A DNA stretch of 64,000 bases, taken from assembly GCF_988243305.1 (NCBI RefSeq), contig NZ_OZ547136.1; one strand, 5' to 3'. Shown here one piece after another: positions 27,903 to 31,335 of this stretch. The first letter of the stretch is position 1; each line of letters begins with the position of its first letter. The position numbers and the translations under genes were made by a program. The notes below the pieces were generated by a model that was given only the letters and a program-made list of their open reading frames with translations, did no database searches and had not been told where the DNA came from.

Positions 27903-30101
27903 ATGTCGACTCCTGACAATCACGGCAAGAAAGCCCCTCAATTTGCTGCGTTCAAACCGCTAACCAAGGTACAGAACGCCAACGACTGTTGCTGCGACGG
28001 CGCATGTTCCAGCACGCCAACGCTCTCTGAAAACGTCTCCGGCACCCGCTATAGCTGGAAAGTCAGCGGCATGGACTGCGCCGCCTGTGCGCGCAAGGTA
28101 GAAAATGCCGTGCGCCAGCTTGCAGGCGTGAATCAGGTGCAGGTACTGTTCGCCACCGAAAAACTGGTGGTTGATGCCGACAATGACATCCGTGCACAAG
28201 TTGAATCTGCGGTGCAAAAAGCGGGCTATTCCCTGCGCGATGAACAGTCCGCCGACGAACCGCAAGCATCACGCCTGAAAGAGAATTTGCCGCTGATTAC
28301 GCTAATCGTGTTGATGGCAATCAGTTGGGGGCTGGAACAGTTTAATCATCCGTTCGGGCAACTGGCGTTTATCGCGACCACGCTGGTTGGGCTGTACCCG
28401 ATTGCTCGTCAGGCATTACGGCTGATCAAATCCGGCAGCTACTTCGCTATTGAAACCTTAATGAGCGTAGCCGCTATTGGTGCACTGTTTATTGGCGCAA
28501 CGGCTGAAGCTGCGATGGTGTTGCTGCTGTTTTTGATTGGTGAACGACTGGAAGGCTGGGCCGCCAGCCGCGCGCGTCAGGGCGTTAGCGCGTTAATGGC
28601 GCTGAAACCAGAAACCGCCACGCGCCTGCGTAACGGTGAGCGTGAAGAGGTGGCGATTAACAGCCTGCGCCCTGGCGATGTGATTGAAGTCGCCGCAGGT
28701 GGACGTTTGCCTGCCGACGGTAAACTGCTCTCACCGTTTGCCAGTTTTGATGAAAGCGCCCTGACCGGCGAATCCATTCCTGTGGAGCGCGCGACGGGCG
28801 AAAAAGTTCCTGCAGGAGCCACCAGCGTAGACCGTCTGGTAACGCTGGAAGTGCTGTCAGAACCGGGTGCCAGCGCCATTGACCGGATTCTGAAACTGAT
28901 CGAAGAAGCCGAAGAGCGTCGCGCCCCCATTGAGCGGTTTATCGACCGTTTCAGCCGTATCTACACGCCCGCGATTATGGCCGTCGCCCTGCTGGTAACG
29001 CTGGTGCCGCCGCTGCTGTTTGCCGCCAGCTGGCAAGAGTGGATTTATAAAGGGCTGACGCTGCTGCTGATTGGTTGCCCGTGTGCGTTAGTTATCTCCA
29101 CGCCCGCGGCGATTACCTCCGGGCTGGCGGCAGCAGCGCGTCGTGGGGCGTTGATTAAAGGCGGTGCGGCGCTGGAACAACTAGGTCGTGTTACCCAGGT
29201 GGCGTTTGATAAAACCGGTACCCTGACCGTCGGTAAACCGCGCGTTACCGCGATTCATCCGGCAACGGGTATTAGTGAATCCGAACTGCTGACACTGGCG
29301 GCGGCGGTCGAGCAAGGCGCGACGCATCCACTGGCGCAAGCCATTGTGCGCGAAGCACAGGTTGCTGAACTCGCCATTCCCGCCGCCCAATCACAGCGGG
29401 CGCTGGTTGGGTCTGGCATTGAAGCGCAGGTTAACGGTGAGCGCGTGTTGATATGCGCTGCCGGAAAACATCCGGCTGTTGCATTTGCTGGTTTGATTAA
29501 TGAACTGGAAAGCGCCGGGCAAACGGTAGTGCTGGTAGTGCGTAACGATGACGTGCTTGGCGTAATTGCATTGCAGGATACCCTGCGCGCCGATGCTGCA
29601 ACTGCCATCAGTGAACTGAACGCGCTGGGCGTCAAAGGGGTGATCCTCACCGGCGATAATCCACGCGCAGCGGCGGCAATTGCCGGGGAGTTGGGGCTGG
29701 AGTTTAAAGCGGGCCTGTTGCCGGAAGATAAAGTCAAAGCGGTGACCGAGCTGAATCAACATGCGCCGCTGGCGATGGTCGGTGATGGTATTAACGACGC
29801 GCCAGCGATGAAAGCCGCCGCTATTGGGATTGCAATGGGCAGTGGCACAGACGTGGCCCTGGAAACCGCCGACGCAGCATTAACCCATAACCACCTGCGC
29901 GGCCTGGTGCAAATGATTGAACTGGCACGCGCCACTCACGCCAATATCCGCCAGAACATCACTATTGCGCTGGGGCTGAAAGGGATCTTCCTCGTCACCA
30001 CACTTTTAGGGATGACCGGACTGTGGCTGGCAGTGCTGGCAGATACCGGTGCGACGGTGCTGGTGACGGCGAATGCGTTAAGGCTGTTGCGCAGGAAATA
30101 A
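27903..30101 (+). CDS. zntA: Zn/Cd/Pb-exporting P-type ATPase
   Basis: 732 aa; N-terminal metal-binding GMDCAAC, CPC motif (IGCPCALVISTP), DKTGT phosphorylation site. Confidence 0.97.
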   Translation: MSTPDNHGKKAPQFAAFKPLTKVQNANDCCCDGACSSTPTLSENVSGTRYSWKVSGMDCAACARKVENAVRQLAGVNQVQVLFATEKLVVDADNDIRAQVESAVQKAGYSLRDEQSADEPQASRLKENLPLITLIVLMAISWGLEQFNHPFGQLAFIATTLVGLYPIARQALRLIKSGSYFAIETLMSVAAIGALFIGATAEAAMVLLLFLIGERLEGWAASRARQGVSALMALKPETATRLRNGEREEVAINSLRPGDVIEVAAGGRLPADGKLLSPFASFDESALTGESIPVERATGEKVPAGATSVDRLVTLEVLSEPGASAIDRILKLIEEAEERRAPIERFIDRFSRIYTPAIMAVALLVTLVPPLLFAASWQEWIYKGLTLLLIGCPCALVISTPAAITSGLAAAARRGALIKGGAALEQLGRVTQVAFDKTGTLTVGKPRVTAIHPATGISESELLTLAAAVEQGATHPLAQAIVREAQVAELAIPAAQSQRALVGSGIEAQVNGERVLICAAGKHPAVAFAGLINELESAGQTVVLVVRNDDVLGVIALQDTLRADAATAISELNALGVKGVILTGDNPRAAAAIAGELGLEFKAGLLPEDKVKAVTELNQHAPLAMVGDGINDAPAMKAAAIGIAMGSGTDVALETADAALTHNHLRGLVQMIELARATHANIRQNITIALGLKGIFLVTTLLGMTGLWLAVLADTGATVLVTANALRLLRRK

Positions 30102-30202: not shown

Positions 30203-30448
30203 TCAACCGCCTTTGCGAATCAAATAACGATAAGGCAGTCCATCCGTCTCTTTAGCAACCAGTTCGTGTTCCATAAAGGTACAAAACCCAGGAATATCGC
30301 GGGTAGTGGCCGGATCGTCGGCGATAATCAGCAACGTTTCGCCAGGCTGCATATTGCGCACGGTTTTGCGCACCATCATCACCGGTTCCGGGCAGCGCAG
30401 GCCAAGCGCGTCGAGTGTGTGGTCAGGGCTGGAAAAGAGATCGGTCAT
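30203..30448 (-). CDS. tusA: Sulfur carrier protein TusA
   Basis: 81-aa ORF with the [11 protein letters not shown] active-site cysteine motif. Confidence 0.95.
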
Positions 30449-30627
30449 TTTCTTCTCATCACTTAAAAAAACGGCGCTAGTTTACGCCCTGTGAGTCCGT
30501 AAGCAAACCAGGTTAACGATTGCGTGAAAATTAACCATTGCATTGTCAACGTAAAGCAGTATCATGCGGCGGCTCGAAAAAAGGGTAAGAACGTTATTTA
30601 ATCAAGGTAAAATAGCGTGTCGTACGT

Positions 30628-30663
30628 ATTGGGTTCCCTCACCCCAATGGTTAATCAAAAAGG
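30628..30663 (+). ncRNA. Candidate preQ1-I riboswitch aptamer in the yhhQ leader
   Basis: AUUGGG-UUCCCUCA-CCCCAAU stem-loop then GGUUAAUCAAAAAGG tail overlapping the yhhQ SD; resembles the class I aptamer of Thermoanaerobacter as recalled (CUGGGUCGCAGUAACCCCAGUUAACAAAACAAGG). Confidence 0.4.
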
Positions 30664-30669
30664 TACAAT

Positions 30670-31335
30670 ATGAACGTTTTCTCGCAAACTCAACGCTATA
30701 AGGCGTTGTTCTGGTTATCGTTATTTCATCTTCTGGTGATCACCTCCAGTAACTATCTGGTTCAGCTTCCGGTCTCCATTTTTGGTTTTCATACCACCTG
30801 GGGCGCGTTTAGCTTTCCGTTTATCTTTCTCGCTACTGACCTGACCGTGCGTATTTTTGGCGCACCGCTGGCCCGTCGTATCATCTTTGCGGTGATGATC
30901 CCGGCGTTGCTGATCTCCTACGTCATCTCGTCGCTGTTCTATATGGGCTCCTGGCAGGGATTCGGCGCACTCGCTCACTTCAACCTGTTTGTCGCCCGTA
31001 TCGCCACCGCCAGTTTCATGGCCTACGCGCTGGGCCAGATCCTCGACGTGCACGTTTTTAACCGCCTGCGTCAGAGTCGCCGCTGGTGGCTGGCACCAAC
31101 AGCTTCCACCCTGTTTGGGAACGTCAGCGACACGCTGGCCTTCTTCTTCATTGCCTTCTGGCGCAGCCCCGATGCCTTTATGGCTGAACACTGGATGGAA
31201 ATCGCGCTGGTCGATTACTGTTTCAAAGTGTTAATCAGTATCGTTTTCTTCCTGCCAATGTATGGCGTATTACTCAATATGCTGTTGAAAAGACTGGCAG
31301 ATAAATCTGAAATCAACGCTTTGCAGGCGAGTTAA
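30670..31335 (+). CDS. yhhQ: Queuosine precursor (preQ0/preQ1) transporter, COG1738
   Basis: 221-aa polytopic membrane protein matching YhhQ. Confidence 0.92.
   Translation: MNVFSQTQRYKALFWLSLFHLLVITSSNYLVQLPVSIFGFHTTWGAFSFPFIFLATDLTVRIFGAPLARRIIFAVMIPALLISYVISSLFYMGSWQGFGALAHFNLFVARIATASFMAYALGQILDVHVFNRLRQSRRWWLAPTASTLFGNVSDTLAFFFIAFWRSPDAFMAEHWMEIALVDYCFKVLISIVFFLPMYGVLLNMLLKRLADKSEINALQAS

Follow-up and report, generated by a model that had tools for sequence, protein, structure and literature searches.

The type III subtype of the class I preQ1 (preQ1-I) riboswitches was defined bioinformatically in 2014 (McCown et al.) from 293 sequences, almost all of them from Pseudomonadota and located upstream of yhhQ, as relayed in PMC10622847 and PMC11625349. 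We used the type III consensus second-hand, in the form in which PMC10622847 and the review PMC11625349 give it. The gene in question encodes YhhQ, an experimentally supported importer of preQ0 and preQ1 (Zallot 2017, PMC5372724).

The closest described system is the E. coli (Eco) preQ1 riboswitch, for which a 2.30 Å cocrystal structure is available (PDB 8fza; Schroeder et al., J Biol Chem 2023, PMC10622847). In the same study, isothermal titration calorimetry (ITC) of a 36-mer RNA gave a preQ1 KD of 57.9 nM (N = 0.9), while surface plasmon resonance (SPR) gave 120 nM for preQ1 versus 16 µM for preQ0, a 133-fold preference for preQ1. A GFPuv reporter in E. coli ΔqueC was repressed 6.1-fold by preQ1 with an EC50 of 291 nM; this in-cell assay relied on a plasmid-borne fusion, in which C-G replaced the P1 closing pair, rather than on the yhhQ leader in the chromosome. 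Switching was abolished by U7C, C16U and A33C, with A33C and A33Pur causing loss of both switching and binding. The C15U substitution weakened binding 64,000-fold and raised the EC50 311-fold, and deletion of 1–3 nt in the L3 linker improved affinity in vitro. In the crystal, U12-A34, C11-G35 and C10-G36 (wild-type numbering) form Watson-Crick pairs, U7 and U8 touch preQ1 and A33, and C9 is part of a ceiling triple. Base triples place A33 and A34 in the ligand pocket and its ceiling, leaving all four Shine-Dalgarno (SD) bases buried.

The yhhQ leader analysed here matches the Eco type III riboswitch in its 36 nucleotides, its yhhQ context, its P1/P2 pairing, its specificity base and the placement of the SD in the pocket. 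Type II riboswitches, which form the core of Rfam family RF00522 and include those of T. tengcongensis and B. subtilis queC, have in common with it an H-type pseudoknot, the ‘AC’ before the P1 3′ strand that includes the specificity C and an L3 rich in A that lies along the minor groove of P1 (PMC10622847, PMC11625349). In contrast, type II loops are longer and contain purines, only the first two SD bases are sequestered, and the B. subtilis example acts by transcription termination (PMC11625349). Type I riboswitches (Carnobacterium antarcticum, Haemophilus, Neisseria) likewise carry UU after the P1 5′ strand and adopt the same overall fold (PMC11625349), but their expanded loop accommodates two preQ1 molecules in a stack, whereas type III holds one in a very tight pyrimidine loop (PMC10622847, PMC11625349).

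Identity and anatomy of the yhhQ leader element

We analysed a 64,000-nucleotide stretch of DNA (NZ_OZ547136.1), hereafter the window. The region was matched in 5,425 of 5,426 complete genomes, identifying the window as E. coli. The gene order is zntA (27903–30101, + strand), tusA (30203–30448, − strand), yhhQ (+ strand), dcrB and yhhS. From the sequence alone, a first-pass annotation had proposed a candidate preQ1-I riboswitch immediately before yhhQ, with a 6-bp stem (AUUGGG/CCCAAU), a 9-nt loop, a 3′ strand beginning CCCC and an A-rich tail that includes the SD. It had also assigned YhhQ to COG1738 as a preQ0/preQ1 importer, in line with the published experiments and the PF02592 match.

Positions 30628–30663 of the + strand, the very coordinates proposed, are base-for-base identical to the ‘WT Eco 36-mer’ AUUGGGUUCCCUCACCCCAAUGGUUAAUCAAAAAGG listed in supplementary Table S1 of PMC10622847, and this string occurs once in the window. 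The proposal of a class I aptamer is thus borne out, with the 36-mer identity specifying subtype III, but the element is an established riboswitch rather than a candidate: the class was defined in 2014, and the exact E. coli sequence was crystallized and functionally validated in 2023. We are very nearly certain that 30628–30663 constitutes the preQ1-I type III riboswitch of E. coli, which acts as an OFF switch on translation of the importer YhhQ. Published work on this very sequence demonstrates ligand binding, structure and reporter repression, and our conservation and covariation data support the pairing scheme.

Adding 30627 to the published nucleotide number gives the position in the window (Table 1). 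The leader reads ATTGGG TTCCCTCAC CCCAAT GGTTAATC AAAAA GG TACAAT ATG. The 6-bp stem and 9-nt loop are present as first described, although conservation is confined to the four inner pairs of the stem (UGGG/CCCA). The four cytosines noted at the start of the 3′ strand comprise the last base of the loop, C15 (C30642), which is the specificity cytosine, and three cytosines of P1. The A-rich tail with its SD lies exactly where it had been placed.

Table 1 Features of the yhhQ leader and their positions in the window
Feature	Position	Strand	Basis
PurR operator AGGTTAACGATTGCGT, 16-mer	30510–30525		Conserved across Enterobacteriaceae genera
Putative sigma-70 promoter: TTGCAT (30538–30543), 16 nt, TATCAT (30560–30565)	30538–30565	+	Cross-genus conservation CCATTGCA...AAAGCAGTATCAT
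Escherichia-specific polymorphic leader segment, ~50–55 nt	30573–30627	+	Lies between the putative transcription start and the aptamer
Complete preQ1-I type III aptamer and expression platform, nt 1–36	30628–30663	+	Identity to Table S1 of PMC10622847; model R1, 46 bits
P1 5′ strand, A1–G6 (ATTGGG)	30628–30633	+	Conserved core U3–G6 at 30630–30633
9-nt loop TTCCCTCAC / UUCCCUCAC	30634–30642	+	Sequence
Pyrimidine turn, U7 U8 C9	30634–30636	+	Invariant in all aligned sequences; roles from PMC10622847
P2 5′ strand (anti-SD), C10 C11 U12	30637–30639	+	Complementary to A34 G35 G36, invariant, 100% paired; crystal pairs
L2: C13, A14 (proposed gatekeeper), C15 (specificity base pairing preQ1)	30640–30642	+	
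P1 3′ strand, C16–U21 (CCCAAT)	30643–30648	+	Pair counts; C16U abolishes switching (PMC10622847)
Tail GGTTAATCAAAAAGG	30649–30663	+	Directly after the P1 3′ strand
Variable part of L3, linker GGUUAAUC	30649–30656	+	Length and sequence free between genera
A-tract A30–A34, in P1 minor groove	30657–30661	+	A33 reads preQ1 edge, A34 pairs U12 (PMC10622847)
SD AAGG, A33–G36, of which A34–G36 make up the P2 3′ strand	30660–30663	+	PMC10622847
yhhQ coding sequence, 221 aa, regulated gene	30670–31335	+	Open reading frame; PF02592; RefSeq ‘7-cyano-7-deazaguanine/7-aminomethyl-7-deazaguanine transporter’

The features that define type III are all found at this site: a pyrimidine-rich loop, UU after the P1 5′ strand and AC before the P1 3′ strand (as defined in PMC11625349), four to five conserved A residues before P2 with a variable linker back to P1 (as defined in PMC10622847), and a position immediately 5′ of yhhQ (COG1738) in a gamma-proteobacterium. 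Among the aligned leaders, loop bases U7, U8, C9–U12, A14 and C15 are invariant, while position 13 is C, A or U. Five A residues make up the A-tract in 47 of 48 distinct leaders. The SD lies 6 nt from the ATG here and 6–7 nt from it in other leaders. The spacer at 30664–30672, (U/C)(C)ACAAUAUG, is near-invariant across genera.

The minimum free energy (MFE) of the 65-nt leader was −8.4 kcal/mol (z = +0.75 versus shuffles), so that the hairpin alone is thermodynamically unremarkable, as expected for a small ligand-dependent pseudoknot. The MFE fold also contained an alternative helix between CAAUAUG, which includes the start codon, and the P1 5′ strand with bases upstream of it (30624–30630); we rejected this helix, as genera with a different P1 showed no compensating change.

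On the basis of the published structure, the riboswitch would act as follows. With no ligand, the 3′ tail and its SD (AAGG) would be free and yhhQ would be translated. As preQ1 accumulates, it would stack on the top of P1 and pair with C15 at 30642, its other edges being read by U7 and U8 and by A33, the first base of the SD. The A-tract would then occupy the P1 minor groove, and P2 would arise from pairing between A34-G35-G36 and U12-C11-C10. In this H-type pseudoknot, all four SD bases would be buried, so that the 30S subunit could not bind and import of queuosine precursors would be shut off once the cell has preQ1. Occlusion of the SD by the ligand-bound pseudoknot, which the first-pass annotation had anticipated, agrees with the burial of AAGG in the crystal (PMC10622847).

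Conservation and covariation of the aptamer

We fetched 80 Enterobacteriaceae yhhQ loci. Stem and tail, whose conservation in this family had been put forward as a check, were retained throughout: the core GGGUUCCCUNACCC (GGGTTCCCT(C/A)ACCCC) followed by an AAAAAGG tail was found upstream of yhhQ in 80/80 loci. The linker between core and tail was free in both sequence and length, spanning 3–8 nt beyond the three bases after P1, or 44–70 nt in Klebsiella and Raoultella. Among 41 distinct Enterobacteriaceae leaders, the outer pairs 2-20 and 1-21 were unpaired in 14 and 30, respectively; the conserved P1 is therefore 4 bp long. In every E. coli variant sampled, the sequence from the aptamer through the ATG was identical, whereas the DNA immediately 5′ of it was polymorphic, which places a sharp constraint boundary at aptamer nucleotide 1.

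Within Enterobacteriaceae alone, we found one compensatory P1 pair (U-A to A-U, in Buttiauxella), which was not significant by pair-count measures. As this covariation was insufficient, more distant leaders were needed. A plain homologue search returned only relatives with ≥87% identity; the wider sample was therefore drawn from YhhQ representatives at 50% identity, together with their contigs. The motif was present upstream of 4 of 9 diverged YhhQ homologues (53–63% protein identity), with stems GAGG/CCUC (L088), CGGCGG/CCGCCG (L091), GAGGG/CCCUC (L096) and UGGG/CCCA (L090). The five other diverged homologues (L093, L094/L095, L097, L098 and L099; 41–60% identity) had no type III motif upstream. 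In L094 and L097, there is almost no gap, or an overlap, with the preceding gene, with which these two yhhQ homologues are presumably co-transcribed.

We aligned 33 non-Escherichia sequences in register (alignment A3). When the published pseudoknot was placed on A3, 88% of cells were paired and four pairs showed double changes. The covariation score was 0.118, compared with 0.023 ± 0.010 after shuffling; 0 of 500 shuffles scored as high, and the score dropped when the pairing partners were slid. Pairs 3-19, 4-18, 5-17 and 6-16 were never broken among 31 distinct non-Escherichia sequences, with compensatory changes at 3-19 (UA/AU/GC) and 4-18 (GC/AU/CG). P2 showed no covariation on A3: C10-G36, C11-G35 and U12-A34 were complementary and 100% paired, with both strands invariant, as expected when one of them is the SD. 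Support for P2 thus comes from complementarity and the published crystal structure.

Covariance models and alternative readings

We built a covariance model from A3, which contains no Escherichia sequences, and ran it unfiltered over the whole 64-kb window. This model (R1) matched 30628–30664 with 46 bits (E = 2.3e-13), the next best match in the window scoring 9.5 bits (E = 0.44). Together with the exact identity to a characterized RNA, this single strong match indicates that the element is more than a chance resemblance.

The first-pass annotation had also proposed a search with the Rfam PreQ1 model, RF00522, as a check. Using Rfam 15 and cmscan, we obtained no RF00522 match at E ≤ 10 on either 701 nt or 66 nt around the site, nor in six other type III loci (L007, L060, L088, L090, L091 and L096). 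As a positive control, we used a B. subtilis-type queC leader from a metagenome (L100 2296–2340), a type II aptamer; RF00522 found it with 44.2 bits, above the gathering score of 39, and R1 failed to detect it. Type II and type III models therefore do not detect each other’s aptamers in either direction. Since RF00522 finds type II and misses all seven type III examples, its negative result reflects a gap in the coverage of subtype III, which makes the check invalid for this subtype, and we discarded it as a refutation of the riboswitch. The miss lies with the model and has no bearing on what defines the class biologically. In the RefSeq/PGAP records sampled for E. coli, tusA and yhhQ are the only entries at this site, and no riboswitch is annotated. 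Downstream of yhhQ in Buttiauxella (L060 2764–2851), Rfam gave a sub-threshold match to a PyrR binding site (30.3 bits versus a gathering score of 54), which is probably just a terminator-like hairpin.

The missing Rfam match and the z-score of +0.75 could both be taken to mean that the hairpin and A-rich tail resemble an aptamer by chance, or that they form a conserved translation-initiation region without ligand sensing; the aptamer is, moreover, mostly invariant in close relatives, so that conservation alone could reflect orthology. We find this reading barely conceivable, given that the identical RNA binds preQ1 at 58 nM and switches in cells (PMC10622847), that P1 carries compensatory changes in diverged taxa, and that conservation begins sharply at nucleotide 1 while the linker between the conserved blocks varies freely. 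That preQ0, the preferred substrate of YhhQ, might be the physiological ligand in place of preQ1 is very improbable in view of the 133-fold difference in SPR affinity (120 nM versus 16 µM; PMC10622847).

It has next to no plausibility, in turn, that the element is a transcriptional attenuator or part of a leader-peptide open reading frame instead of a translation-initiation switch. A 45-aa frame (30564–30701) does span the region, and a terminator-like hairpin was called at 30691–30708, inside yhhQ. However, no U-tract follows P1 or P2, and the SD itself helps to build the ligand pocket (PMC10622847). In most E. coli, a 1-nt indel shifts the 45-aa frame, and other genera lack its 5′ half; these same defects led us to reject it as a gene.

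Leader context and implications for yhhQ regulation

Upstream of the aptamer, the PurR operator is the same 16-mer, AGGTTAACGATTGCGT, that is given as the yhhQ PurR motif in a ChIP–chip study (PMC3159470, Table 1), so that, besides the riboswitch, yhhQ receives a purine signal at the level of transcription. TTGCAT and TATCAT form a plausible −35/−10 pair that would place the transcription start site near 30572. A strain-specific TAAAAT at 30608–30613 would instead go with a start near 30620. A consensus promoter scan called nothing at the yhhQ leader, and our search of the supplement of Kim 2012 turned up no yhhQ start site.

Most genera lack the segment at 30573–30627, and in these the −10 element ends 11–13 nt before the aptamer, so that the mRNA would open with the aptamer at its extreme 5′ end. 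Within E. coli, the segment differs by SNPs and by indels of 1 nt and 12 bp, and it is wholly replaced in one strain; most E. coli genomes are ~94% identical to the window over 30560–30700. Other genera carry unrelated insertions of 20–150 nt at the same spot. In E. coli MSB1_8B (NZ_LR890536.1, L086 1–204), DNA that includes a group II intron reverse transcriptase/maturase gene (ltrA), in the orientation of yhhQ, replaces the native upstream sequence to ~2 nt before the aptamer, thus displacing the PurR box and promoter and leaving the aptamer intact. The published work used the 36-mer on its own, a 30-mer for crystallization and a reporter on a plasmid. In its native setting, the leader would add a 5′ extension of ~55 nt and a PurR-controlled promoter, and operation of the riboswitch at this chromosomal locus is inferred.

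Long insertions were seen in the L3 linker of Klebsiella, Raoultella and one Enterobacter sp. (L075 1396–1494, L079 1396–1494, L076 60–132 and L081 522–594), where L3 spans 44–70 nt versus 3–8 nt elsewhere. The core and the AUAAAAAGG tail are retained in these leaders. Each insert is predicted to fold into a separate hairpin (−12 to −23 kcal/mol); these hairpins share a closing stem, GYCC...GGGC, and an inner stem, UUCA/UGAA. In L075 and L079, the loop motif CCCUCAC occurs a second time, within the insert. Our literature search, which did not extend to McCown 2014, found no description of long L3 insertions.

These observations lend themselves to two speculative proposals, which we rate as unlikely overall. 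One is that yhhQ is a two-input gate, controlled at its promoter by PurR–hypoxanthine and at its SD by preQ1, in which the polymorphic Escherichia 5′ leader might modulate switching. The other is that L3 may be a natural site of expansion, exemplified by the self-folding 44–70-nt insertions of Klebsiella and Raoultella; if true, L3 expansion would define a structurally distinct sub-variant of type III.

The yhhQ aptamer itself adds no new biology and is fully accounted for. It provides a calibration point, in that a reader without tools recognized a real 36-nt riboswitch from sequence that neither Rfam 15 nor RefSeq/PGAP flags. A small pseudoknotted riboswitch from a poorly represented subtype should thus not be discounted for lack of an Rfam match, and a type III seed in Rfam would remedy the missing annotation in E. 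coli and in other Enterobacteriaceae with the motif.
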